The position numbers were made by a program, and so were the translations under genes. From a virus (Duplodnaviria; Heunggongvirae; Uroviricota; Caudoviricetes): a stretch of 64,000 bases of DNA. The DNA is taken from IMG/VR virus record IMGVR_UViG_2706795442_000001, one strand, 5' to 3'. Below, piece by piece: positions 2,987 through 42,843 of the stretch (its first letter is position 1; each line of letters begins with the position of its first letter). The notes beneath the pieces were generated by a model. That model did not search any database. It was not told where the DNA came from and saw nothing but the letters and a program-made list of their open reading frames with translations.

Positions 2987-5900
2987 AACAATATGGCAAC
3001 ACAAGAATCAACTCTTATGAACTTTGCTCAACGTTTAGCAGGTACAGCAACAGTCGTTGGCGTAAGTCAAAAAGACATTATGGCACTATCTGCGGCTATG
3101 GCTTCGGTTGGTATTAACGCCGAATCCGGTGGCTCTGCAATGTCTAAAGTTCTTACAAAAATGAACAATGCCGTTAAAGACGGTGGGGAGAAACTTCAAG
3201 GCTTTGCAAAAGTAGCAGGAATGTCTGGTCAAGAGTTTGCTGAGGTATGGAGAAAAGACCCATATAAAGCAGTACAACAATTTGAAGAAGGGTTAGCTAA
3301 CCAAAACAAACAAGGTAAAAACGTTAAAGCAATGCTTAAAGATTTAGGTATTACTGAATTACGTGAAACTGATACAGTATTACGTTTAGCTAACGGTAAC
3401 AAACAATTACAAACTGCTAGAGAAAATGCAAACAAAGGGTATAAAGAAGGTAACGCACTTTCTAAAGAAGCTGAAACTAAGTATAAAACTTTAGGAAATC
3501 AAATGAAAATCTTTATGAACCATGTTAGAGATTTAGGTATTTCTTTAGGTTCAGCACTTGCACCAGCATTAATTGGTATTATGAAAGTATTAACACCTTT
3601 AGTTGACGCATTAGCTAAAGCACCAACACCCGTCAAAGCATTTGTTGCAGCATTAGCGTTGATTCCAGTTATTGCAGTTCCAGTATTGGGTGTAGCGGCA
3701 GCTATCACAGGTGCTATGGGATTAGTTGGACAATCAATGTTAGTAGCAGAAAAGGCAGCAATGTCAAGTTCCAGAGGATTAAGATTCTTTGTAGCTACAC
3801 AAAAATTGATGTTTAGCCCTATTAAGACTACTACACAAATGTTACAAAATCTAGCAGCAAGTTTCAGAAGAACTGGAAAAGCTAGTAAAGTAATGGCAGC
3901 AGAAACAGTTGCATCTGAAAAGGCAGTAGAAGCGTCAAGTGTAGGAATGAGCCGAGTAGCTAGAAACTCTAACACAGCTAGTAAATCTATGCAAGGTGCA
4001 GGAGTTGCTATGGCTTCAACAGGTAAAAAAGCATCATTTACTAGTAAATTATTTGGCGGTTTGAAAAAAGTTATTGGTCCACTTATCGGAATGGGCGGAT
4101 TACTTACAGCTGCATTTGAGGCTTTAGCCGCAGTGATAGGAGCTCTTTCAGCGCCGATACTAGCAATTGTAGCCGCAGTTGCCGCAGTAGGTGTTGCATT
4201 TGTAGTTGCTTATAAGAAAGTAAAATGGTTTAGAGACGGAATCAACGGACTTGTTTATGTTCTTAAAGTTTTTGCAGGCGGAATAGTATCAAGTACAGTT
4301 AATGGAATTAAGTCTCTTGGACGTTGGTTCGGTTGGCTTGGTGGAATTGTTAAAGATAAAGCAACTTCTGCTATTAAGTCTTGGTGGAAATCTTTACCAC
4401 AAGACAGCGACATTAAACAACAAGTTAAGGCTGTTCAATCTGTAGGAAACAGTTTTAAAAACGTAATGAAAACATTAGGAACTGCTACACACAAAGCGAC
4501 GGATGTTTCAAACGTTTTAGGTAAAGGTGTTTCTAAAGGAACTAAACAAGCATTAAATAATTTCGTTGATTATTCAGAGAAATCTGATAAAATATTAGCT
4601 GAGATTAAAAATAATCACAGTAGAATAACAACAGAAGAAAAAAATAAATTATTACAAATACAACAAGATACTACTAAAGATTTAATGTCAGAGTTTGAAA
4701 AGAGAGCTAAAGGTCAATTAGATATAGAACGTAAAGTTTTCTCTCAAAATAGTGGACTTTCAGAGAAACAAGAACAAGCTATCTTACAGAGAACTGAAAA
4801 ACGTTTCAGTAAAAGTAAACAAAAATTAACGGAAATCAACAAAGAAATTCAAGAACTTGTTAATAAACAAGCAAGAGATGGCAAATTAAGCGGCAAGGAA
4901 ATGAAAAGACTTAACCAACTATACGACGAACAACGTAAGTTAGCTGTCGGAACTCTTTCTTCAACTAACAAAGAACAGAAACGTATTCTTTCAAGAATGT
5001 CAGCGAACAGAGAAGCATATAATGTTAAAGAAGCTCAATCTATAGTAAAAGAAGCTATTAAGGCAAGAGATAATGCTAAAAAAGAAAATAAAAAACGATA
5101 CGACCAAGAAGTAGACCATATTAATAGTATGACAGACTTATCTAAAACTGAAAAAGAAAAAATGTTAAAAGATGCTGATGATAGATATAGAAAAGCTAAT
5201 AAAAAAGCTGACGATAACCATAAGAAAGTTTTAGACGGCGTTAAGAAAAGCAACGAAGATATAGAAACAGAAATGGATTTATCTAACGGAAAAGTATACA
5301 GTAACGCAGAGAAATGGTGGGAAAAAACTAAGAAAGGTTTTGGCAATTTCTTTGGCGATATTGGAAAATCCTTCTCTGACATGGGTAAATCATGGAAGAA
5401 AAATTGGGATGAAATGATAAGTGATATATCTAGCGTTGATTGGTCTGGTATGTGGGACGGTATTAAAAATACCGGTTCCAATATCGGTGGTTGGTTCTCT
5501 GAAAAAGGACAAGAATTTGCTAAATCATTTAAAGGCGGTTGGGATGAAACTGTCACTAGATTAGGAGATTTATGGTCTAAATTGAAAGGGACTGGTTCAA
5601 ATCTAGGAACTTGGTTTGCTGAAAAAGGTCGACAATGGTATACTGACTTTAAAGATAGTTGGGAAACAACTAAGCAAACAGCCGGAGATTTATGGCAAGG
5701 TCTTAAAAATACTGGAACAGGTTTAGGTCAATGGTTTGGTCAAAAAGGTTCTCAATGGTATAATAATTTCAAAAACAGTTGGGAAACGACTAAACAGACT
5801 GCTGGAGACCTTTGGGCTGGTATTAAAAATACTGGTGCTGGACTAGGCGAGTGGTTTGGTAAAAAAGGCGCACAGTGGTATAATAACTTTAAAAGTCAAT

Positions 5901-8866
5901 GGGACTTAGCTAAATCAACCGCTGGAGATTTATGGAATGGAATCAAATCCACAGGGGCTAACTTAGGTCAATGGTTTGGTCAAAAAGGTGGTCAATTGTG
6001 GGGTGCTCTAAAATCTGGTTGGACTAATGCTGTAAATACTACAGGAAATCTTTGGGGCACTATTACTGGAAAAATGGCTACCGGTTGGGAATCTGTAAAA
6101 GGCTGGTTCGCAACAAAAGGTTCTCAAATGGTGTCTGCTATTGTACAAGGTTGGAACTCTACTGTTCATACAGTAGGTACTGCATTTGGTACTCTTTGGG
6201 GTACCGTAAAACGAATTTGGTCTGGAATGACTGGAACAATAAGATACTGGTCTGGTGTAATTTGGGATAGAGTTAAAACCGTATTTAACTGGATTAAAGG
6301 TAAAATAAGTGGCGCTTTAATGGGTGCATGGAAATCAGTACAAAGAATCTGGAAAGGTATGAAAGGCACATTCTCCTACTGGACTGGAGCTATCTGGAAC
6401 CGTGTAAAATCAGTGTTTGGTTGGATTAAAAATAGAATCGGCTCAACACTAAACGACGCTTGGAAAATTGTACGACATGTTTGGAAAGGTATCAAAGGTA
6501 CGATAACTTATTGGACAGGTGCTATTTGGAATAGAATCAAGTCTATTTTTGGCTCAATCAAGAATAGAATAGGTTCTACAATGAATGCCGCCTGGAAGAT
6601 TATGCAAAGAATATGGAAGGGTATTAAAGGTACAGTAACATACTGGACAGGTGCTATACTTGGTAGAGTAAAATCTATTTTTGGAACAATGAGAAATACT
6701 ATCTCTAAAGTAATGAATAGAATTAAATCTATTATGTCAAATATTTGGCGTTCTATCAAGAGAAATAGTATTAATTTAATGACTGGTATGTGGAACAAAA
6801 TCAAGAGTGTATTTAACAATATGGTTGACGGAGTTAAAACTTTTGGTTCATCTGTTAAAAAACATATTGGCGACATGGTTGGTGGCGTTAAAAAAGGTCT
6901 TAATGGATTGATTAACGGTGTTAACTGGGTCGGCGGAAAATTAGGTATAGACAAAAAAATACCTACATTATCTACTGGTACAGAATCTACACATACACAA
7001 AACTTTGTTAGAAATGGCGCTATTAGCACACCAACTTTAGCAACAGTAAATGACAAAGGACCTGGTAATGGTACTGGTAGAAATGGACATCAAGAATTAA
7101 TTCAACGTAAAAACGGTTCATTATTTGCACCACAAGGAAAAGATGTAGTAGTTCCATTAAATAAAGGCGATAAAGTTATTAATGGTAAAACTACTCAAAA
7201 AATGCGTAAACAAGGTCTTATTCCTAAGTTTTCTCGTGGTACTGATGAGGGAGACCTTGTCAGAAGAAGCATGTTAAAAGATGCAAAAAGAGCAAAACGT
7301 AAACAAAAAAGAAAACATAATCATAGTCATGGTATAGACGCCGGAGAAATGATGGGTCAAGGCGGCATGGGCGGTGCTGCAAAAGAAGCATGGAAATATG
7401 TAGAAGACAAAACCAAAAATATTGGTAAGAAAACTAGTAAAACAGTTTCATCATTGAGTAACGGCGCACAAAAAATGCTTAACACTTCTAAAGAAGCACT
7501 AGGTGCTGCTGGAGATTGGGCTAAGAAAAAAGCCGGAGACTTAATGGATTATGTTGGACATCCAGGCAAACTTTTACAAAAAGTAATGAGTGAGTTTGGT
7601 GCTGACTTTAGTATGGTTAAAGGGGAAATCCCTTCTATGCTTTGGGACGCAATGTGGAAACGTCTAAAAGAAGCTGTAGAATCATTATTCAATGACTGGT
7701 TAGACGACGCTATGGAAGGCGATGGCGACGGTAAATATATCAAATATCTTGATAATATCACTACGCCATATAGTCCTAATGGACCACCACCAGGCTATGC
7801 GTTTAATTGGGCGCATCCTGGTATTGACTTACCTTATATATACGAAAAAGTTCAAACACCATTAGAAGGTAAAGTTCAAACTAAAGATACTGGTAATGTT
7901 GGATTCGGTCATCATATCGTTGTTAAAGCGAAGCCTTATGACGCATATTTCGGTCATATGAGTAAATGGTCAGTTAAGAATGGACAACACGTAAAACCAG
8001 GAGATGTACTTGGTATATCTGGTAACACAGGTTCAAGTACAGGACCACACTTACACTATGAAATGAACAAGCACGGAATGGGTTCTATGACTGGTCACTC
8101 TATCGACCCTGTTAAGTGGTTAAAATCACATAACGGAAGTAAAGGTGGACGTGGCGGTGTAAACAAATCTGCTAGTGCTTGGGCTAGTGATATTAGAAGA
8201 GCCGCTAAACAAATGCACACAAGTGTTTCTTCTGGAGACGTTAGTAGAATTGTTAGTCTTATTCAGCACGAATCCGGCGGTAATGCAGGTGTTACACAGT
8301 CTAGTGGATTAAGAGATATTAACGTATTGCAGGGCAATCCAGCGAAAGGTTTATTACAATTTATTCCACAAACATTTAGACATTATGCTGTTCGTGGTCA
8401 CGGAAACATTATGAGTGGTTATGACCAATTACTTGCATTCTTTAACAACAAATATTGGAGAAGTCAGTTTAACCCAGGTGGCGGCTGGTCTCCTAGTGGT
8501 CCTAGAAGATATGCAAATGGTGGTATGATTAAAAAGCATGGATTATATGAAGCTGGAGAAGGTAATAGACCAGAAATGGTATTACCACTCACTAAGAAAA
8601 ATCGTTCTATGCAATTAATCGAACAAGCCAAATCGTTCATGGGAATCAAAGATGAACCGGTTTCTGTTGATAGTGGCAATGGTGCTATAGATATTATAGC
8701 AAAACTATTAGAACAAAACAATAGATTATTAGAAACTATTGTCAATGTAGTAGATAATAAAGAATTAGTTGTTGACGGACAGGCTATTACAAATAGTGTC
8801 AGTCAGAACTTAGGTAGTAAATATAATCAGTCTAGCTACCATCGTGGCAAGAAACATAAAAGATAA
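2987..8866 (+). CDS. tape measure protein, exon 2: TMP core, Trp-periodic repeat block, M23 peptidase domain and lytic transglycosylase (SLT) domain
   Basis: Continuation of the TP901-type TMP domain (MATQESTLMNFAQRLAG…). An M23 motif HHIVV…GNTGSSTGPHLHYE lies at about 7900-8070. An SLT motif LIQHESGGN lies at about 8260-8285. No independent RBS is present (TTG at 2984 in the track; ATG at 2993). Confidence 0.85.
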   Translation, partial: NNMATQESTLMNFAQRLAGTATVVGVSQKDIMALSAAMASVGINAESGGSAMSKVLTKMNNAVKDGGEKLQGFAKVAGMSGQEFAEVWRKDPYKAVQQFEEGLANQNKQGKNVKAMLKDLGITELRETDTVLRLANGNKQLQTARENANKGYKEGNALSKEAETKYKTLGNQMKIFMNHVRDLGISLGSALAPALIGIMKVLTPLVDALAKAPTPVKAFVAALALIPVIAVPVLGVAAAITGAMGLVGQSMLVAEKAAMSSSRGLRFFVATQKLMFSPIKTTTQMLQNLAASFRRTGKASKVMAAETVASEKAVEASSVGMSRVARNSNTASKSMQGAGVAMASTGKKASFTSKLFGGLKKVIGPLIGMGGLLTAAFEALAAVIGALSAPILAIVAAVAAVGVAFVVAYKKVKWFRDGINGLVYVLKVFAGGIVSSTVNGIKSLGRWFGWLGGIVKDKATSAIKSWWKSLPQDSDIKQQVKAVQSVGNSFKNVMKTLGTATHKATDVSNVLGKGVSKGTKQALNNFVDYSEKSDKILAEIKNNHSRITTEEKNKLLQIQQDTTKDLMSEFEKRAKGQLDIERKVFSQNSGLSEKQEQAILQRTEKRFSKSKQKLTEINKEIQELVNKQARDGKLSGKEMKRLNQLYDEQRKLAVGTLSSTNKEQKRILSRMSANREAYNVKEAQSIVKEAIKARDNAKKENKKRYDQEVDHINSMTDLSKTEKEKMLKDADDRYRKANKKADDNHKKVLDGVKKSNEDIETEMDLSNGKVYSNAEKWWEKTKKGFGNFFGDIGKSFSDMGKSWKKNWDEMISDISSVDWSGMWDGIKNTGSNIGGWFSEKGQEFAKSFKGGWDETVTRLGDLWSKLKGTGSNLGTWFAEKGRQWYTDFKDSWETTKQTAGDLWQGLKNTGTGLGQWFGQKGSQWYNNFKNSWETTKQTAGDLWAGIKNTGAGLGEWFGKKGAQWYNNFKSQWDLAKSTAGDLWNGIKSTGANLGQWFGQKGGQLWGALKSGWTNAVNTTGNLWGTITGKMATGWESVKGWFATKGSQMVSAIVQGWNSTVHTVGTAFGTLWGTVKRIWSGMTGTIRYWSGVIWDRVKTVFNWIKGKISGALMGAWKSVQRIWKGMKGTFSYWTGAIWNRVKSVFGWIKNRIGSTLNDAWKIVRHVWKGIKGTITYWTGAIWNRIKSIFGSIKNRIGSTMNAAWKIMQRIWKGIKGTVTYWTGAILGRVKSIFGTMRNTISKVMNRIKSIMSNIWRSIKRNSINLMTGMWNKIKSVFNNMVDGVKTFGSSVKKHIGDMVGGVKKGLNGLINGVNWVGGKLGIDKKIPTLSTGTESTHTQNFVRNGAISTPTLATVNDKGPGNGTGRNGHQELIQRKNGSLFAPQGKDVVVPLNKGDKVINGKTTQKMRKQGLIPKFSRGTDEGDLVRRSMLKDAKRAKRKQKRKHNHSHGIDAGEMMGQGGMGGAAKEAWKYVEDKTKNIGKKTSKTVSSLSNGAQKMLNTSKEALGAAGDWAKKKAGDLMDYVGHPGKLLQKVMSEFGADFSMVKGEIPSMLWDAMWKRLKEAVESLFNDWLDDAMEGDGDGKYIKYLDNITTPYSPNGPPPGYAFNWAHPGIDLPYIYEKVQTPLEGKVQTKDTGNVGFGHHIVVKAKPYDAYFGHMSKWSVKNGQHVKPGDVLGISGNTGSSTGPHLHYEMNKHGMGSMTGHSIDPVKWLKSHNGSKGGRGGVNKSASAWASDIRRAAKQMHTSVSSGDVSRIVSLIQHESGGNAGVTQSSGLRDINVLQGNPAKGLLQFIPQTFRHYAVRGHGNIMSGYDQLLAFFNNKYWRSQFNPGGGWSPSGPRRYANGGMIKKHGLYEAGEGNRPEMVLPLTKKNRSMQLIEQAKSFMGIKDEPVSVDSGNGAIDIIAKLLEQNNRLLETIVNVVDNKELVVDGQAITNSVSQNLGSKYNQSSYHRGKKHKR
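5440..6840 (+). repeat. tandem degenerate repeats of about 120 nt (39-40 aa) encoding Trp/Phe every ~11 residues within the TMP
   Basis: Two units recur about four times each: GDLWxGIKNTGxxLGQWFGQKGxQWYNNFKNSWETTKQTA and AWKxxQRIWKGIKGTxTYWTGAIWNRxKSxFGxIKNRIGSTxN. The repeats are visible at the DNA level. Confidence 0.7.
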
Positions 8867-32676: not shown

Positions 32677-33369
32677 CTATGTTAATATTGTTAATGCTGA
32701 TTTAGACCAATTTTCTAAATCTAGTTTTTCAATCTCTTCTTTTGTTTTAAATGAACCTTCTAAAGTATCGGTTTCTTTAGATTCAACTGTCCAATTTTCT
32801 GGAATAACAATAACATTTAATACTCCTAAATGAACAGAATCAACCTCTGTTTTTTCGTTATATAATAAACCAATAATAGCTGATTCTTTAGTGATTTCAT
32901 AATGATTAGTAATTTCAATACCGTTGTCAGTTTTAATAGTAACTTCTTCTTCAAGTTCTCTTGAGTTATTTACTGCTAAAATATGTTCAAAATTCCAAGC
33001 GTGCTCTACCTCATTTTGATGTCCACCTATACCTATTGAAGATTTACCATGTAATCTAGATTCTCCACTGCCTTCAAGTCTAGTATAAGTAAAATATTTA
33101 TCTCCTTGCGCAATAATTGTGTAGGGAATTGGTTGAACGAAATCAAAATTCTCTTCTAAGTCTCCACGTCTACCAACAACCCCTGCAATTTCCCATAAAT
33201 TATTTAAAGTATTAACCATTGCATCATAGTCTTCTAAGTTAGTAGGAGCCAACACTTCTACATTTAACATGTCTTGAATTAAATTAATTTTTTCTAGTGC
33301 TGACTTATTAAGTGCTAAAATTTGTTCATCATTTTTATTCATAAATAATTTCTCCTTTTTAATATTCAA
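32677..33369 (-). CDS. hypothetical protein
   Basis: ORF present; contains a Gly-rich SIGIGGH motif. No confident family assignment. Confidence 0.4.
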   Translation of the reverse strand: MNIKKEKLFMNKNDEQILALNKSALEKINLIQDMLNVEVLAPTNLEDYDAMVNTLNNLWEIAGVVGRRGDLEENFDFVQPIPYTIIAQGDKYFTYTRLEGSGESRLHGKSSIGIGGHQNEVEHAWNFEHILAVNNSRELEEEVTIKTDNGIEITNHYEITKESAIIGLLYNEKTEVDSVHLGVLNVIVIPENWTVESKETDTLEGSFKTKEEIEKLDLENWSKSALTILT

Positions 33370-33628
33370 ATTTTAATTCAGCATTTTCTGTGTCAGATAC
33401 TAGTACATAGTCATCTGATACAGTGCTTAAATCAATAGGCTCGTCAAAAGCTAATACAATAGATTTTTCGTTAGGTTCATATTTTTGGAATTTAACCAAG
33501 TTGTATTTATCAGCGTGTTTAACTACCATCATAATGTGGTGTTCATCATTTTTGGATAACTTGTGTTTAACCAAATCTCCCACCTTCAAATCTAATTTAC
33601 GATTTCCTTCTTGAAAAATAAACTTCAT
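33359..33628 (-). CDS. hypothetical protein
   Basis: ORF present. Confidence 0.4.
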   Translation of the reverse strand: MKFIFQEGNRKLDLKVGDLVKHKLSKNDEHHIMMVVKHADKYNLVKFQKYEPNEKSIVLAFDEPIDLSTVSDDYVLVSDTENAELKFEY

Positions 33629-33659
33629 AATATTTTCTCCTTTCTAACAATCTAATAAT

Positions 33660-33688
33660 AGTATAACAGATGAAAAATCATCTGTCAA
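33660..33688 (-). promoter_or_regulatory. promoter TTGACA-17-TATACT with a hairpin in the spacer
   Basis: Minus strand reads TTGACA gatgatttttcatctgt TATACT. The hairpin lies at 33666-33685. Confidence 0.5.
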
Positions 33689-33691
33689 CTA

Positions 33692-36600
33692 TTATTTTTG
33701 TAATTTATAAATGTAATTTTTGTTGCATTCTTCTATTTTAATAACTGGATTCCTATATATATTATTACCTTTTACATTAAATGCTTCTCCGTTTTTATAT
33801 CCTAATAACACCAGTTTTGTGCCACGTTCCCACCAAGACTTCTCATTTTCAGTCTCTTCTTGGTATTTTGTATACATTCGTCTAGTAAGTTTTGCAGTAA
33901 TTACACCAGAATCTTTAGTTAATATATATACTAGTTTCTTTTGATTGACATATCCAACAACTACTCCAGTGATAGCGCTAATTTCATATTCTTTAAAACC
34001 ACGTGAATTAGTTTTCAAATAAGGTAAATTCTTTAGTTGCTTAAATTCGGATATGTCGTGTTTTTTTGCGACTTTATCAGTATCAATGACAAATTCATCA
34101 GAATTGAATAATATAGTATCAATTTCCCATTCTGGAATAGTGCCTTGACATTCTTTTACCCAATATTCTTGTCGTTTTTTCTTAGTAAATTCTTTAGCGT
34201 ATTGTGGTTTTTTAATTTCTTCTTTTAAAGGTTTTATTTCTTTATTGTAATATTTTTCAAATGATTTAATGTCTATTACTAACTCATCTTCTAAAGTGTA
34301 ATCAACATGTTTAGAATAGTTTTGTATAAATATTTTTTCTATTTCTTCGTTCATCGGTCCTTTATTTCTGCCTTTAATTCTACTTCTAAAATCATGCAGC
34401 GCCAATAGTTTATTGTATTTATCTGGTATTATATCCCTATAATAATCTAATTGAGACATTGTTACTTTTTCTTTTTGTGGTACTTCTAGCTTTACTAATT
34501 TAGCCATTATATGGCGTCTATCTAATTCTTCTAATGAATCCATAGCACCAGATTTAATTAATGAAATAGTTTTTTTAGTGCTTGTTAGTTTAGTATCAAC
34601 CATTTTTTCATAATAATCTTTTAATGATTTAAATGGTCTATTTTCAATAATAGCATCTAATGTGTTAGTATCTAAACCTAGTATTGGTTTTAATCCATAT
34701 AAAACTTTTCCGTTCTGTGCAGTAAATTTAAGTTGAGATTTATTAATGTCTGGTAAAATAATATCATCACTCATACTGTTTACTGCTATAGAAACTTCTG
34801 CATAGTCAGTGCCTTTAGTTAAATTACCTTCAAGACCAGAGTTAATATTGAGACAGGCTGTTTTCCAATAACCTAAACCATATTTATACGCAATATTCAT
34901 TTCCACCATTAAAACTAGTGTATATGCTACCACGTGCGGTAATGAAAATGCGTAATTAAATTGTAACGCAAACTGTTCTTCAAGTATATATCTAGCAAAC
35001 TCTTCTCGTTGATTGTTATTTTTCATAACTTGCATAAATTCTTTAGACGCATTCTCGATTTTTTTCTCATCTTTTTTTCCTACTGATTTTCTAAACTTAT
35101 TTGCAAAAGTTAATCCACCATTGGCTATTTTAGGGTCAATAATAATATTCATAAGTATTTCTTGTGTGTCACAAATACCAGTTCTTGGCAGCAAGTGTTT
35201 TTCCATAAGCTCTTGTTCATGTTTAGTCAGTCCATATTTATCCATGTCTTGATACCATTCATTGATGTTTTGTTTATATCTTACAAACTTGTCAATTGGT
35301 TGTTCTCCTTCTGTTTGTAAACGAATAATTGTGTTAGTAATAGCCACTTCGTCAAAAGTGTTAGGTTTAATTTTGCGCATCGCATTTCTTGCAACTAGAG
35401 ACGACATTTGGAAAGCATCAAATATATCTCCTTTTGAAAGCATATCAAACATTCCATTAGAAGTCAAGTCTAATACGTCTGGGTGGAAATATTTATTATA
35501 TGTTTCTCTTAATGAGCCTTGCCATTTAATTTTACCATCTTCTAAAAGTAAATCCATTGCTTCTCTAATTCTACCTAGAGCTGAAATTGAAAGAAAATCC
35601 TCTTTTAATTCTCCACAATATTCTCCGTCTTCTGCGTTAAATTGTGTAACTGTTAATCCTTTTGTTGTTTTCATCATTGCATTTTCTTTTAGAAAACTAT
35701 GTGGATAAAAAATAACAGAACTTGCATGTTGAGAACGACCACTAATCAATCCCTCTATAGATAACATAACATCTTTTAATCCGTCGTGTTTCTCCACACG
35801 TTCAATAAATTCTTTAACAGGTTTTCTTTCTTTTTTTTCATTACCAAAGAAACAGTCTGATACAGACCATAAAGAAGCTCCTTCTGATGGTATTAAGTTT
35901 GCAATATTATGTTGTTCAGCAACGTCTAATCCATATCCACGTGTAGCAGTTATAACTGTAGACTTAGGTCCTTCTGTAGTGAAAGTACAACTATTAAGGA
36001 TTTTGTCATTACCATATCTCTTTCTTGCCAATTCAACAATTTGTTCACGTTTAGAAGCCTCAGCATCGATGTCGATGTCGGGTAATGATTGTCTTTCTTT
36101 ACTTAAGAAACGATAGTATGGTAAGTCATAATCTAGTGGATTAAATTGAACAATATCTAGTAGATAGTTCGTATAATAACAAGCAGCTGAACCACGTGCA
36201 GGTCCTACTAAACTAACTTCCCACATCATGTCAATAATATCTTGTGTTAGTACAAAATAACTTGATAATGGTTGTCCTAATCCTTCTGATATTTCCCATA
36301 TTTGCTCTAATTCAATCTCTATTCTATCTAAATGTTCCTTATTAAACTCTTGATTATGTGATAGCATACCTTCTCCAATAAGGTGTAGATAGTATCTATC
36401 CATATCTCTTTCAGAGTTTTTAAATTTATTAATATAAATATAGTCATCAAGATAATTTTCGAACAAGTTTTTATCATTATATCTTGGTATATCAATATTT
36501 GGGACTTGAGTTTTTTGTTTAAAATTAATAGGTTCTAATCTTTTCATTAAATCATGTGTATTTTGAATTAATTCTTCTAGTAATTCTTTATTAAAATATT

Positions 36601-38659
36601 CTAGCAATTCGGCTTTGTCCATGATATATGTCGTATTATAAAAACTGTCTACTTCACGCTCTCCGTTGCTTGCTTGTAAGTAAGTTTTATGTGCAAAAGC
36701 CTGTTTTTTATTTAAATAATGAGCATCTGTAGTTATAATTGGAGTTAAATCATACACTTTACAAAGTTGTAGTAGCATATCATTTACAATTTGTTGTTCT
36801 TGTTTCACATCAGCATTTGATTTATCATGTTTAATTGCTGGTTGTAGCTCAAGATAAAAGTTCTCTTTGCCTACTAAGTTAATAAAGAACATAATAAAGT
36901 TGTGTATTTTTTTCTTATCTTCTATTGAACCTGTTTTATCATATTCTAAGATATATTGTGATAACGGGCTACCGAGACAATTGTGTACTGTTGCGCCTTC
37001 AATGATAAATGAGTGATTTTTATTTACTTTCATACAATGAACTTTTTCTACTTTTGTAGATTTAGATATGTTTTTTATTCTATTTTTCATATACGAAACA
37101 CCATCTACTATTACAGGAACATCATTGAAAGACATATCTTTGTCAGTTATTATAAAGTCATTATCATTATCACAAAAGTCCTTTAATTTTGTAGCTTTAG
37201 CTCCACCTAAAGAAAGATAGTAAGATTTTTGATGATGAACACCATTTTTATCTATTCTCTCTTCTGAAGAACTAATTATAGGATTTATTTTAAATTTAAA
37301 GAATACTTCTTTAATATCTTGAATTAAATCATATGAGATAGATGAATATACAAATTCTTTTCTAGGTTTTTTTCTAAAATACCCATCACTATGAGCCAAA
37401 CCTTTTAACAAGTATTGTAATTTATTCTTAGGGAGCTGTTTTATAATAGTTGGAATATGTTTGTTTAATGCTCCTTTTTTATTATTAAATAACCAATCCC
37501 AAAAATCTCTATTATCTTTTCCAAACACTGTAATATCACTTCTAGTATTTTCTTTTCTATGTCGTACAGTAGCATTAAGTCCTTTAGATTTAAAGTATTT
37601 TAAAATAAATTCCGTTTTTTCTTTATCGTTATAATTTAAAGTAAAACCAAAATCATATGGGGAATGTCCAAAATGTCCATCTCCAATAAATAATCCAAGC
37701 ACATACAGGAAATCTTTATCTACTTTATATTGTGTGTTGCCATGTTTTAATACTGTCATATCTTGAGTTGTATAATTAATAGGTGTTAATAAATAGTCGT
37801 TTTCTTTTAAATACTTTGCTTCTACCCAATTAGGATATTCATATGAAGCTCGTTGTTTCGCTCTTTGTAGGATTCCTGCTTTTTTATTTCTGTCCATATC
37901 TTTAGAATAATTCTTTTCACTTTTTATTTCTTCATATTTACCATTATGTTTTTTATTATTTCCAACCCAATATTTATTAGGTAAAACGAGAAATTTATGA
38001 TTATCTGTACTTTCAATAGGTAAGACACTGTTTGAAACGTCTAAAGATATAAAGTTACCATTATATATTCTTGATGTCGGATTTAATACTTTTTGAAAAC
38101 TACCATCTTCTGTCATTACAATATCTCCAGATTTAATATCTTCTATATTTTTATTGCCACTAATTGTTTTTACTTTTTGTCCTTTAGTGAAGCATGCCGA
38201 GCTGAAGATTACATCATTCTCATATCCTTTAACCAATTCTTCAATATCTTCAAAGTAGGTAGGTGTTCTTTCCATCCCCCTGTAGAAGAAGCTGTTCTGC
38301 CACTCTCTAGTTGTTAATTTCTTCAAGAACTCATAACCATGTTGATTTTTAGCTAGCACTAGAAAATGATAAAATTGCGTTTTTTCATTGTTTTCTACAG
38401 CTTCATTTATCGTATCTTTTTCTACTAAATAAAACTCATCTCCATATCCTAAGACAAAGTCTTTAAACTTGTCTTTATTATCTTCAATATATCTGTGCGC
38501 TCTTACGTGATTACTAATTGTCGCATGGTCTGTGATAGCTATACCTGGTAGACCTAATTCTAAAGCGTAATCTAAAAGGTCTTCTGGTCTATTAATTGCA
38601 TCACGTAAACGAAAGTTACTCGCATCTGTGTGATTATGAATAAGAAAAGGTTGATTCAT
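33692..38659 (-). CDS. DNA polymerase III alpha-type (DnaE-like) replicative polymerase, containing an intein
   Basis: The N-terminal PHP domain reads HNHTDASNF…GLPGIAITDHATISNHV. The protein is 1655 aa, about 1250 aa after the intein is removed. Confidence 0.85.
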   Translation of the reverse strand: MNQPFLIHNHTDASNFRLRDAINRPEDLLDYALELGLPGIAITDHATISNHVRAHRYIEDNKDKFKDFVLGYGDEFYLVEKDTINEAVENNEKTQFYHFLVLAKNQHGYEFLKKLTTREWQNSFFYRGMERTPTYFEDIEELVKGYENDVIFSSACFTKGQKVKTISGNKNIEDIKSGDIVMTEDGSFQKVLNPTSRIYNGNFISLDVSNSVLPIESTDNHKFLVLPNKYWVGNNKKHNGKYEEIKSEKNYSKDMDRNKKAGILQRAKQRASYEYPNWVEAKYLKENDYLLTPINYTTQDMTVLKHGNTQYKVDKDFLYVLGLFIGDGHFGHSPYDFGFTLNYNDKEKTEFILKYFKSKGLNATVRHRKENTRSDITVFGKDNRDFWDWLFNNKKGALNKHIPTIIKQLPKNKLQYLLKGLAHSDGYFRKKPRKEFVYSSISYDLIQDIKEVFFKFKINPIISSSEERIDKNGVHHQKSYYLSLGGAKATKLKDFCDNDNDFIITDKDMSFNDVPVIVDGVSYMKNRIKNISKSTKVEKVHCMKVNKNHSFIIEGATVHNCLGSPLSQYILEYDKTGSIEDKKKIHNFIMFFINLVGKENFYLELQPAIKHDKSNADVKQEQQIVNDMLLQLCKVYDLTPIITTDAHYLNKKQAFAHKTYLQASNGEREVDSFYNTTYIMDKAELLEYFNKELLEELIQNTHDLMKRLEPINFKQKTQVPNIDIPRYNDKNLFENYLDDYIYINKFKNSERDMDRYYLHLIGEGMLSHNQEFNKEHLDRIEIELEQIWEISEGLGQPLSSYFVLTQDIIDMMWEVSLVGPARGSAACYYTNYLLDIVQFNPLDYDLPYYRFLSKERQSLPDIDIDAEASKREQIVELARKRYGNDKILNSCTFTTEGPKSTVITATRGYGLDVAEQHNIANLIPSEGASLWSVSDCFFGNEKKERKPVKEFIERVEKHDGLKDVMLSIEGLISGRSQHASSVIFYPHSFLKENAMMKTTKGLTVTQFNAEDGEYCGELKEDFLSISALGRIREAMDLLLEDGKIKWQGSLRETYNKYFHPDVLDLTSNGMFDMLSKGDIFDAFQMSSLVARNAMRKIKPNTFDEVAITNTIIRLQTEGEQPIDKFVRYKQNINEWYQDMDKYGLTKHEQELMEKHLLPRTGICDTQEILMNIIIDPKIANGGLTFANKFRKSVGKKDEKKIENASKEFMQVMKNNNQREEFARYILEEQFALQFNYAFSLPHVVAYTLVLMVEMNIAYKYGLGYWKTACLNINSGLEGNLTKGTDYAEVSIAVNSMSDDIILPDINKSQLKFTAQNGKVLYGLKPILGLDTNTLDAIIENRPFKSLKDYYEKMVDTKLTSTKKTISLIKSGAMDSLEELDRRHIMAKLVKLEVPQKEKVTMSQLDYYRDIIPDKYNKLLALHDFRSRIKGRNKGPMNEEIEKIFIQNYSKHVDYTLEDELVIDIKSFEKYYNKEIKPLKEEIKKPQYAKEFTKKKRQEYWVKECQGTIPEWEIDTILFNSDEFVIDTDKVAKKHDISEFKQLKNLPYLKTNSRGFKEYEISAITGVVVGYVNQKKLVYILTKDSGVITAKLTRRMYTKYQEETENEKSWWERGTKLVLLGYKNGEAFNVKGNNIYRNPVIKIEECNKNYIYKLQK
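36980..38194 (-). mobile_element. intein (405 aa) with a LAGLIDADG homing endonuclease domain, inserted in the PHP domain of the polymerase
   Basis: Begins CFTKGQKVKTISG…GDIVMTEDG and ends …EGATVHN, followed by extein C(LGSPLS). LAGLIDADG blocks LYVLGLFIGDGHF and LLKGLAHSDGYF are present. Confidence 0.8.
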
Positions 38660-38660
38660 T

Positions 38661-39038
38661 TTATTGTTCCTCCATTTCTTTTAAAACTTCTATAAACTCT
38701 TTATTAATCTTATCAGAATCAACAATCTGTTTCATTTTTTCTTTTATGAAACCATTTATTTCATCCTTATTATTAATTTCACTGTCTACAATTGGTTCAT
38801 AAATATTTGGTCTTGAAGTTATATCTATAATATCCTCTTGTGAAACTATATGTTTTACTCCTTTTACTTTATCTGTTACATGCCACATCTTAAACATTAA
38901 ATAATGATTTACTTTATTATCCCTCATTCCGTATGATAATTGAATTTCAAATAATTCGTTTTCATATTCTTTTGTAAATTCTATCTGTTTTATTAAACTC
39001 ATAATATTTCCTCCTACTAAAAAACTTGTTAAGTACAT
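38661..39038 (-). CDS. hypothetical protein
   Basis: ORF present. Confidence 0.4.
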   Translation of the reverse strand: MYLTSFLVGGNIMSLIKQIEFTKEYENELFEIQLSYGMRDNKVNHYLMFKMWHVTDKVKGVKHIVSQEDIIDITSRPNIYEPIVDSEINNKDEINGFIKEKMKQIVDSDKINKEFIEVLKEMEEQ

Positions 39039-39067
39039 TATAGCATACTCAACAAGTTCTGTAAAGT

Positions 39068-39652
39068 CTAATTTAATTTTTTGTTTAAAATAATTGTTAT
39101 CAACGTAGCAATCCCCATCATAACAAGGTTTACTGATTCTGTAATAATAGCACTTAAAGGCGCATGAGTTACACTCATATTAATAATCATAATACCTAAT
39201 CCAGCGCTAAATCCTACATAAAGCAAATAGTTAACACCTTGAGCTGTCTTTTTATACATAAGGTGTGCGATTTGTTCTAAATATGCAAATGCAATTAGAA
39301 ATGATGACCAATGTTGAACAATATCATTTGGAACCCAATATATAAGCACACTAGAAGCAAATGCAAACATCATTAAATATACCCATAAACCATATACTTT
39401 ATGTTTTTTAAATGACACTAATAACAGTATCAATAATGCAATCACTGCATTAATACATTGTGGCACTATAACATACCAAACAGATTGTTCTTCTATAAGC
39501 GTTGACGCTGTAATTGTAGTCGCTAAAGCTATACATAACCAAAATACTTTAGAAACTCCCCTTATATTTTTAACTGAAAACAACGTTTTTATCTGTGGTA
39601 TATATGCTAAAATAAATAACACAGATACTATTAAACCAAGAATAGCTTGCAT
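39068..39652 (-). CDS. PnuC-like nicotinamide riboside transporter family membrane protein
   Basis: Multi-TM protein. The N-terminal YIPQIKTL is PnuC-type. Confidence 0.5.
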   Translation of the reverse strand: MQAILGLIVSVLFILAYIPQIKTLFSVKNIRGVSKVFWLCIALATTITASTLIEEQSVWYVIVPQCINAVIALLILLLVSFKKHKVYGLWVYLMMFAFASSVLIYWVPNDIVQHWSSFLIAFAYLEQIAHLMYKKTAQGVNYLLYVGFSAGLGIMIINMSVTHAPLSAIITESVNLVMMGIATLITIILNKKLN

Positions 39653-42175: not shown

Positions 42176-42541
42176 CTATTCAAGTCCATATTGTAGTCTC
42201 TTTTGTGCCATTTTAAAATATTCATCTGATAATTCATAACCAATAAAATCACGATTTAATTTTTGGCAAGCCACTCCAGTAGTACCACTACCCATAAATG
42301 GGTCAAGAATAGTATCGCCTTCATTTGTAAGTCTCTCTAATAACCATTCCATAGCATATAAAGTTTTCTGTGTTGGGTGTCCTTTATCAACCTTTTGCGA
42401 TTTAGGTGTAACAGTTGTTTCAATTAAAGGTCTTTCATATTTTTCATCTAATCTATTGAAAGTCCATTTAGCACCTTTTTTAACAAAATATAATGCAAAT
42501 TCTGTATCAAAAATAAAACGTCTATCTCGATTACGTGGCAT
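42176..42541 (-). pseudogene. DNA methyltransferase, C-terminal part (N6_N4_Mtase-type)
   Basis: Motifs HPTQKTL…ILDPFMGSGTTGVA…RDFIGYELSDEYFKMAQKRL are present. There is no RBS before its ATG. It overlaps the N-terminal ORF by 94 nt in the -1 frame. Confidence 0.6.
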
Positions 42542-42843
42542 AGGAGTGGATTTGTAATAATATTGTCATAAGTTCTAAAACCTTCTTTTAAAAAGTCTTT
42601 GTTATCTTCCCCATAACCTCTGTTTATTAAATCATTGGAGTGTACTTCAAACCCTTTTTTCTTTAATACTTCTGATATATGTCCTTCTCCACAACATGGT
42701 TCTAATACATTCCCCTTAAATTCCTCTACTTCTAATAATTTTAAAGTGCTCTCTGGTGGAGTAGCATAATAATCATTCTCTACCCTATCTCTTGTAGTTG
42801 ATGTTCCTGATAAAGATGTTCCTGTTAAATATTTTTCACTCAT
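42448..42843 (-). pseudogene. DNA adenine/cytosine methyltransferase, N-terminal part (frame-disrupted; overlaps the C-terminal part)
   Basis: RBS AAGGAGAG is present. Motifs YYATPPE and VLEPCCGEG (AdoMet-binding) are present. DNIITNPLL sits where NPPY/DPPY is expected. Confidence 0.55.
42475..42481 (-). promoter_or_regulatory. A_AAA_AAG slippery heptamer in the methyltransferase ORF overlap
   Basis: In the upstream frame the codons read TTA AAA AAG. A -1 slip enters the downstream frame (AAA AAA GGT). The sequence is identical to the dnaX-type site. Confidence 0.4.

Follow-up and report, generated by a model that had tools for sequence, protein, structure and literature searches.

An intein with a LAGLIDADG endonuclease domain next to a metal-ligand cysteine in the PHP domain of the Staphylococcus phage 6ec DNA polymerase

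A viral DNA sequence of 64,000 nucleotides (IMG/VR record IMGVR_UViG_2706795442_000001, here called the window) contains on its minus strand an open reading frame (ORF), 33692-38659, that is 100% identical to Staphylococcus phage 6ec (KJ804259/NC_024355, genus Sextaecvirus). The ORF is 4968 nt in length and encodes 1655 amino acids (aa) and a stop codon; in the 6ec record the gene, PHAGE6E_81, is annotated as 'DNA polymerase' only and carries no intein feature. The product is a precursor of a family-C enzyme (the alpha subunit of DNA polymerase III, PolIII alpha, or DnaE-like) which contains one intein. We conclude with considerable confidence that the insertion is a genuine intein of class-1 type, that a LAGLIDADG homing endonuclease with two motifs is embedded in it, and that the intein lies directly before the cysteine that supplies the seventh metal ligand of the PHP domain. 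From sequence comparison and a predicted structure, the intein is real and intact, is very probably functional and is probably still mobile. Its recognition corrects the mature 6ec polymerase from 1655 aa to 1250 aa.

The original prediction placed the intein at 36980-38194 on the minus strand, and on retranslation its coordinates and quoted strings were all correct. The interval translates to exactly 405 aa, representing precursor residues 156-560, which start with CFTKGQKV, end with ATVHN and are followed by CLGSPLS in the C-extein. The two LAGLIDADG motifs within the intein are LYVLGLFIGDGHF (residues 318-330) and LLKGLAHSDGYF (residues 417-428). A profile search of the insert against Pfam found Hint_2 (2.4e-7), LAGLIDADG_3 (6.8e-11), Hom_end (2.9e-8) and Intein_splicing (3.5e-8), all between residues 156 and 560, and Hom_end_hint was also matched. 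Matches of this strength lie well outside chance expectation. The insertion is in frame, is predicted to adopt the Hint fold and has the residues of a class-1 intein, namely Cys1, a TxxH motif in block B (T218-D-N-H221) and a terminal His-Asn followed by Cys+1. The Asp that is typical of class 1 at block F position 4 (F:4), and which is not obligatory, is replaced by Cys542. The claim that a DnaE-type polymerase has a full-length LAGLIDADG intein in its PHP domain was thus borne out by the domain searches and, as described below, by a structure model, by empty sites in sister phages and by a family of inteins at the same site.

An AlphaFold2 (AF2) model of the intein, generated from a 12-sequence alignment, had a mean predicted local distance difference test score (pLDDT) of 86.9 and a predicted template modelling score (pTM) of 0.84, with only intein residues 72-123 poorly defined. 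When the model was compared with the PDB using Foldseek, PI-SceI was the top match (E=1e-19) and the best matches were all endonuclease-bearing inteins (PI-SceI, TliVMA, PI-PfuI, PhoVMA and PI-TkoII), the intein crystal structures matching at E values of 1e-11 to 1e-19. The stand-alone LAGLIDADG enzymes I-DmoI, I-Tsp061I and I-AniI matched the central domain (3e-6 to 1e-5), in which the alpha-beta-beta-alpha-beta-beta-alpha endonuclease fold was found. Aligned directly with PI-SceI, the motifs LGLFIGD327G and GLAHSD425G match its GDG and SDG motifs and the Lys of NKHIP pairs with the Lys of KNIP; we take the PI-SceI residues matched by both Asp and by the Lys to be the catalytic D218, D326 and K301. 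PI-SceI, TliVMA, PI-PfuI and PI-TkoII have the same layout, a Hint domain split by a double-motif LAGLIDADG endonuclease, and PI-SceI and the archaeal inteins share with the 6ec intein Cys1, the His-Asn pair and Cys+1 as well as the aligned catalytic Asp pair and KNIP Lys. However, identity to these inteins is only 11-17%, the TM-scores of ∼0.5-0.6 reflect differing domain orientation and decorations, the host proteins are different, and the F:4 Cys sets the 6ec intein apart. The poorly defined segment is rich in Lys and Arg and was modelled as two helices at low confidence (pLDDT ∼55); it is missing from distant methyltransferase inteins and may, by inference, be an extra DNA-contact region.

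To locate empty sites, nine Sextaecvirus polymerase genes were aligned. Exactly the 1215 nt of the intein are missing in seven of the nine (CF9, BE02, S-CoN_Ph4, BE22, SEP9, RQ1 and PT1-4), and the BE02 gene encodes 1250 aa, precisely the precursor minus the intein. With the insertion point marked by an arrow, the sequence at the empty site is SS(S/A)↓C(I/A)GS in five of the phages and IFA↓CLGS in the other two, RQ1 and PT1-4, compared with SSA↓intein↓CLGS in 6ec; the nucleotide sequence of the empty site in CF9 is TTCAGCTCGAGT↓TGCATCGGAAGT. Once the insert is deleted, the 6ec protein aligns without gaps over the junction to Taq PolIII alpha ('vifssaCLGSplsqyil' and 'lialsgCLGAeipqfil' respectively), confirming that the PHP domain is contiguous apart from the 405-aa insertion. 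In intein-free homologues nothing corresponds to residues 156-560, and a native origin of these residues is rejected by the exact empty sites. Motifs, fold, empty sites and continuity are four independent lines of evidence for an intein, and all agree.

The position of the insertion was examined with reference to the nine PHP metal ligands of Taq PolIII, H11, H13, D20, H47, E72, H95, C145, D212 and H214, which follow the consensus H H D/H H E H C/H D/N H (Barros et al., PMC3666897). All nine are present in 6ec (H8, H10, D20, H45, E75, H98, C561, D645 and H647), so that the metal-binding PHP site of the phage enzyme is canonical, of the kind tied to intrinsic 3'-5' exonuclease activity in Thermus PolIII (PMC3666897). 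The intein Cys+1, C561, aligns with C145 of Taq PolIII, ligand 7. Judged from this alignment, the PHP site of the 6ec polymerase is split by the intein between ligands 6 and 7, ligand 7 doubles as the +1 nucleophile of the intein and the site would be unable to assemble before splicing. The element fits the general rule that inteins occupy catalytic or ligand residues of replication proteins.

Splicing is inferred from the viability of 6ec, a lytic phage that has been isolated and whose polymerase gene this is, and the steps proposed here are by analogy to characterised class-1 inteins. The 1655-aa precursor would fold and Cys156 would form a thioester at the N-terminal junction with the help of T218 and H221, after which Cys561 would receive the N-extein by transesterification. 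Asn560, aided by His559, would then cyclise to release the 405-aa intein, and an S-to-N shift would leave a normal peptide bond between Ala155 and Cys561. The predicted product is a polymerase of 1250 aa with a complete nine-ligand PHP site.

Pfam domains in the precursor were PHP (residues 8-157), DNA_pol3_alpha (769-1023), the PolIII finger domain and HHH_6, with E values for the PHP, palm, finger and helix-hairpin-helix (HhH) domains between 3.6e-46 and 6.4e-16. The protein minus the insert matched Taq, E. coli and M. tuberculosis PolIII alpha in the PDB (E 1e-56 to 1e-42), the catalytic PDxDxD motif of family-C polymerases is present as PDIDID (residues 860-865), and the C-extein (residues 561-1655), the part of the polymerase that was scanned, matched PHROG 405, 'DNA polymerase'. 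This is the sole replicative polymerase visible in phage 6ec. A DnaE-type polymerase had been considered unusual in a phage of this kind, which is correct to the extent that family C is the rarest polymerase class in tailed phages, with 947 examples among 18,382 Caudoviricetes genomes against 6560 PolA and 2857 PolB (Yutin et al., PMC11348598). It is overstated for this lineage, as a family-C polymerase was found in every Sextaecvirus examined and is inferred to be ancestral in the clade uniting Spbetavirus, Sextaecvirus and others (PMC11348598).

The distribution of the intein was assessed in several collections. Among 50,697 phage records it was found only in 6ec and in S-CoN_Ph14, 15 and 16. 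Protein-identical copies were found in one IMG/VR contig, itself identical in sequence to ODUS01000008.1, and in ERZ1464652 NODE-44, and scans of IMG/VR and metagenomes yielded copies that were either 100% identical or very distant. A word-indexed search of 5.8e9 proteins recovered fragments of a 68-76% identical copy in a related polymerase at the site SSA↓C...HN↓CLGSPLS, together with relatives at 25-31% identity whose hosts are C5 DNA methyltransferases and a NifU-like protein. An exhaustive HMMER search of 1.84e9 representatives gave 2492 matches at E<=1e-3 (best E 2e-52). The best full-length matches were 30-36% identical, nearly all had the intein at host residue ∼140-250, and their junctions read ...[ST]A↓CF...VHN↓C[LV][GA].... 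All 25 of the aligned proteins with an intein at the PHP site contain PHP and DNA_pol3_alpha, and in this 25-sequence alignment Cys1, the block B Thr and His, the His-Asn pair and Cys+1 are invariant and the PHP ligands are fully or almost fully conserved. The two gene neighbourhoods inspected were phage-like, one an SPbeta-type block with YorF and YorH and the other a 204-kb contig (L011) encoding lysins and many small ORFs. The shared site and shared residues therefore define a populated intein 'allele' family of one PolIII-alpha site, to which the 6ec intein belongs by its position and because these inteins are closest to each other. The metagenomic members (P0012-P0105 and others) have the same insertion point, Cys1, TxxH, F:4 Cys, His-Asn and Cys+1, and mostly a LAGLIDADG domain, like the 6ec intein; the 6ec lineage differs in the additional Lys-rich segment of ∼50 residues after block B and in being the copy found in cultured Staphylococcus phages.

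To investigate mobility, intein-plus and intein-minus alleles were compared. S-CoN_Ph16 (Ph16, intein-plus) and CF9 (intein-minus) are near-isogenic in the polymerase gene, with 56 substitutions, 44 of which are located at gene positions 1679-1860, directly 3' of the intein; beyond position 1923 there are three differences only. On the 5' side CF9 is separated from 6ec and Ph16 only by the last codon (GCA vs AGT) and position 426. In the first 60 nt 3' of the intein the intein-plus alleles are 55-67% identical to every intein-free allele, while CF9 is 92% identical to the intein-free S-CoN_Ph4 (Ph4) and BE22 over the same 60 nt. Among the intein-plus genomes this 3' tract is identical to position 1812, with three single-nucleotide polymorphisms (SNPs) in 1813-1860. 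The block from ∼43 to 1812 has 0-1 SNP per genome in four independent intein-plus genomes (6ec, Ph16, L020 and L021), and their downstream backbones are 3-6.5% divergent with distinct SNP patterns. Compared by the NG86 method with the 73%-identical copy on the metagenomic contig L010, the ratio of nonsynonymous to synonymous substitution rates (dN/dS) was 0.11 for the C-extein and 0.15 for intein residues 436-560, a stretch that takes in blocks F and G as well as half of the endonuclease domain; these values are approximate because dS is near saturation.

The tract, the nearly SNP-free block and the dN/dS ratios fit an endonuclease that may still be under selection, and fit a recent gene conversion that would have moved the intein with ∼130-180 nt of 3' flank. 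We therefore favour the view that the 6ec endonuclease is currently active, which appears reasonably probable because the catalytic residues are intact, selection is purifying over the stretch that could be compared, and a co-conversion-like tract is found together with near-zero diversity in the intein block. In co-infection the freed intein, or the precursor, would cut intein-free polymerase alleles at the empty site, SS(S/A)↓C(I/L)G, and repair from an intein-plus genome would copy the intein and its C-extein flank, that is, homing with co-conversion.

Several observations weigh against this account. The dN/dS estimate derives from 125 intein codons only, with dS of 1.1-1.7. The N-extein is nearly invariant too among the 6ec-like phages, including CF9, and low diversity in the intein block could therefore be due to recent recombination or a sweep of a larger segment rather than to homing. 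The difference between CF9 and Ph16 appears compatible with either gain of the intein in 6ec-like phages or its precise loss in CF9. In every lineage, intein-free ones included, the 5' half of the gene is a mosaic, as are the 5' 900 nt of extein sequence, and endonuclease genes flanking the polymerase in relatives could also drive recombination there, as with the HNH genes that adjoin it in BE02, Ph4 and BE22. With respect to the intein class, block F position 4 is Cys and not the class-1-typical Asp, and catalytic details may therefore differ.

A rival reading is that splicing is intact while the endonuclease is inactive or decaying, and that the element persists only because the polymerase is essential and is rarely freed of the intein by precise loss. 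Its patchy distribution would then be the outcome of ordinary homologous recombination between co-infecting phages, perhaps driven by the neighbouring free-standing HNH genes. In favour of this reading are the small number of carriers (four phage isolates among 32 related records), the mosaic 5' half of the gene and the HNH genes beside the polymerase in BE02, Ph4 and BE22. This alternative is credible and is given clearly less weight than an active endonuclease. Both LAGLIDADG Asp and the KNIP-aligned Lys are intact, the domain is confidently folded in the AF2 model and the C-terminal half has the low dN/dS given above. In addition, the divergent tract starts exactly at the intein boundary, as in repair from an insertion site, and the nearly SNP-free intein block is carried on backbones that are 3-6.5% apart.

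The one odd trait of the 6ec intein is the cysteine at F:4, which, from residue comparisons, is a family-specific signature. In standard (class-1) inteins Asp usually occupies this position, and in class-3 inteins, those with the Trp-Cys-Thr (WCT) triplet, Cys does (PMC2807308). Cys was found at F:4 in 30 of 32 PHP-site inteins and was invariant in the 25-sequence alignment, compared with 6 of 65 other related inteins, which otherwise have Asn or Asp. The class-3 prototype, the mycobacteriophage Bethlehem DnaB intein, is likewise phage-associated with an F:4 Cys; however, class-3 inteins have no N-terminal nucleophile and carry the WCT triplet (PMC2807308). The 6ec intein has Cys1 and, at the triplet positions, Phe223 (B:12), Cys542 (F:4) and Val558 (G:5). 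Membership of class 3 was ruled out because Cys1 is present and invariant and the Trp and Thr of the triplet are missing, the other WCT positions being Phe and Val.

A role for the third cysteine is the only route by which this finding would exceed the routine. It is conceivable, though improbable, that the PHP-site PolIII-alpha inteins, which are mostly from phages, form a distinct mechanistic sub-type with invariant Cys1, F:4 Cys and Cys+1, in which the three cysteines permit redox- or zinc-gated maturation or the F:4 Cys acts as an auxiliary nucleophile; such a sub-type, if true, would be intermediate between class 1 and class 3 chemistry. For gating, Cys1, Cys542 and Cys+1 would form a disulfide or bind zinc, making maturation conditional on redox state or metal. 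The enrichment of F:4 Cys at this site, the identity of Cys+1 with PHP ligand 7 and the reported role of a mycobacterial DnaB intein as an oxidative-stress sensor (PMC6195587) are in keeping with conditional splicing. Yet the basis is purely residue identity, the F:4 Cys may merely stand in for Asp as a hydrogen-bonding residue and a lytic phage has no obvious gain from a delayed polymerase, and we consider gated maturation unlikely. Still harder to sustain is the use of Cys542 as a nucleophile, forming a class-3-like block-F branched intermediate alongside or in place of Cys1. An F:4 Cys is otherwise a class-3 hallmark and is here a family-specific trait, and the same study did not settle the status of three WCT inteins that have Ser1 or Cys1 (PMC2807308), but Cys1 and TxxH are invariant in the PHP-site family, the triplet partners are missing (B:12 Phe and G:5 Val) and the +1 residue is Cys where class 3 nearly always has Ser or Thr (PMC2807308). 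Finally, the suggestion that the 405 residues are a native, lineage-specific PHP insertion kept in the mature protein can effectively be dismissed, since it has in its favour an uninterrupted reading frame and nothing further, whereas sister phages with flanks up to 100% identical lack exactly these residues, the full set of intein and endonuclease motifs is present with a matching fold, and retention would disrupt the PHP site by separating ligand 7 from ligands 1-6.

Both the 6ec intein and its setting, as regards host protein and domain, are of kinds already known. The Ssp and Npu DnaE inteins use class-1 chemistry with Cys1 and Cys+1. The host of these cyanobacterial inteins is likewise the PolIII-alpha catalytic subunit, but they are naturally split, have no endonuclease and are located at point 'a' in the fingers, not in PHP (Novikova et al. 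2016, PMC4760082). The same survey places bacterial PolIII-alpha inteins at insertion points a-g, with additional points in the PHP domain (PMC4760082). The 6ec intein has the host protein family and the host domain in common with the latter; the survey concerns bacterial genomes, whereas the host here is a phage polymerase and the nearest relatives with an inspected gene context are phage-like too. PolIII alpha is also listed as an intein host for actinophages (bioRxiv 10.1101/2025.01.02.630785). Clustering of an intein, a group I intron and free-standing endonuclease genes on one essential replication gene, with co-conversion of flanks, is a feature shared with the SPbeta bnrdE intein and introns, the T4 homing endonucleases and the actinophage inteins; 6ec does not differ in principle from phage selfish elements generally and is a new example from a Staphylococcus phage. 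No description of a 6ec or Sextaecvirus intein was found in the literature searched, which does not prove its absence, and the current understanding of inteins is unchanged by the finding.

Where the corrected length of the mature protein is of practical value, the biological value lies in the phages themselves. The near-isogenic intein-plus (6ec and Ph16) and intein-minus (CF9) phages are lytic Staphylococcus epidermidis phages which can be grown on the same hosts. The set is a ready system for the study of intein homing and co-conversion in phage co-infection, and is suited to asking whether an intein at a PHP zinc ligand affects proofreading or replication timing. The same gene carries a group I intron in relatives and is flanked by HNH genes in others, and the group therefore provides a compact model of competition between selfish elements. 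The locations of the features of the 6ec polymerase gene are shown in Table 1.

Table 1. Location of the features of the 6ec polymerase precursor and its intein in the window
Feature	Details	Coordinates	Strand
Polymerase precursor ORF	PHAGE6E_81; 1655 aa and stop	33692..38659	-
N-extein	Residues 1-155; first part of PHP; ends ...VIFSSA	38195..38659	-
N-extein metal ligands	H8, H10, D20, H45, E75, H98	within 38195..38659	-
Intein	Residues 156-560; 405 aa; 1215 nt	36980..38194	-
Block A	CFTKGQKVKTISG; Cys156 = intein Cys1, predicted nucleophile for N-S acyl shift	38156..38194	-
Block B	IESTDNHKFLV; T218 and H221 of TxxH; B:12 is Phe, not Trp	37985..38017	-
Lys/Arg-rich segment	∼50 residues, intein residues 72-123, in splicing domain	37826..37981	-
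LAGLIDADG homing-endonuclease domain	Residues ∼310-500	37160..37732	-
LAGLIDADG motif 1	LYVLGLFIGDGHF; acidic residue D327	37670-37708	-
NKHIP	Lys aligned to KNIP Lys of PI-SceI	37451-37465	-
LAGLIDADG motif 2	LLKGLAHSDGYF; acidic residue D425	37376-37411	-
Blocks F and G	KVHCMKVNKNHSFII and EGATVHN; block F His, penultimate H559, terminal N560	36980..37045	-
Cys542	Block F position 4 (usually Asp); intein residue 387	37034-37036	-
Cys561	+1 residue, predicted splice nucleophile; first C-extein residue	36977..36979	-
Putative 3' tract travelling with the intein	∼130-180 nt; gene positions 1681 to ∼1812-1860	36800..36979	-
C-extein	Residues 561-1655; rest of PHP (D645, H647), palm, fingers, HhH	33695..36979	-
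Catalytic motif	PDIDID in palm	36065-36082	-

Other inteins related to that of 6ec were observed in the searches. The next-closest outside PolIII alpha (P0007-P0010 and H40-H54) are located in C5 cytosine DNA methyltransferases before the catalytic Cys of P-C-Q, with junctions ..FP↓C...HN↓CQ.FS.AG, and are carried by, among others, phages of Pseudomonas, E. coli, Lactobacillus and Mannheimia. Further related inteins are in thymidylate synthase, portal and terminase genes. Some of the six inteins outside the PHP-site set with an F:4 Cys have +1 contexts such as CLNGLW and CVIGEV, resembling further PolIII PHP sites missed by the pattern.

A second insertion point was found in the polymerase gene of relatives, at LPD↓IDID in the catalytic Asp motif (6ec gene position 2583/2584), which is uninterrupted in 6ec (36065-36082). 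The insertion is 320 nt in SEP9 (L005 5389-5680) and 1161 nt in RQ1 (L004 ∼5336-6527), the latter including a LAGLIDADG ORF. The SEP9 insertion matches the full length of the Rfam group I intron RF00028 with E=5.5e-6 and a score of 31 bits, below the gathering score of 50. On contig L010 (1314 onward) the intein is present and the ORF stops right after LPD, and one gene can therefore carry both elements. An Rfam scan of 33000-39500 identified no RNA element, and no intron in the 6ec gene. The intein-plus metagenomic relatives L020 and L021 differ from 6ec at four positions spaced by third codon positions (2577, 2580, 2583 and 2586; 36074-36083) which straddle the intron point, a pattern suggestive of co-conversion, or of variation in the target site tied to the SEP9/RQ1 intron.

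Free-standing endonuclease genes located beside the polymerase in relatives are absent from the 6ec window. BE02 has a 228-aa HNH-family ORF just upstream of the polymerase (L003 8760-9446; phrog_374, E=2.5e-60), and an annotated HNH gene overlaps the 3' end of the polymerase in S-CoN_Ph4 and BE22 (L007 and L008, 640-1122). An extra ORF of 190 aa is located upstream of the polymerase in PT1-4 (L009 5334-5906). The first ∼900 nt of the BE02 extein are 67-87% identical to 6ec and the remainder 99-100%.

In S-CoN_Ph14, 15 and 16 the annotation breaks the intein-bearing polymerase up into four to five 'DNA polymerase' fragments and hypothetical proteins. Relative to 6ec, Ph16 (L006) has five single-base deletions, mostly in A-runs, of which two lie within the intein; sequencing errors at homopolymers are the probable cause, because a real frameshift would abolish the polymerase. 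The CF9 polymerase gene is likewise split, by a 1-nt gap. The first 36 nt of L010, an ENA metagenomic contig, start with ..GTGACTGGAGTTCAGACGTGTGCTCTTCCGATCT, which we take to resemble an Illumina adapter, and the first residues of protein P0004, MLFRS, would therefore be an assembly artefact.

Elsewhere in the window two overlapping ORFs on the minus strand, 42176-42541 and 42448-42843, are annotated as methyltransferases. The match of the downstream ORF to Pfam N6_N4_Mtase (E=4.7e-26) is confined to profile positions 86-221, and the upstream ORF ends ...IITNP-LLCH, resembling methylase motif IV broken by a frameshift. The region 42176-42843 may thus be a DNA methylase gene that is frameshifted, split or expressed by a programmed shift. 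On the 204-kb contig (L011 10001-17173) the polymerase ORF with the PHP-site intein ends early; the ORFs that come after it encode a LAGLIDADG domain and, separately, HHH_6, which suggests further intron or endonuclease interruptions of that polymerase gene.

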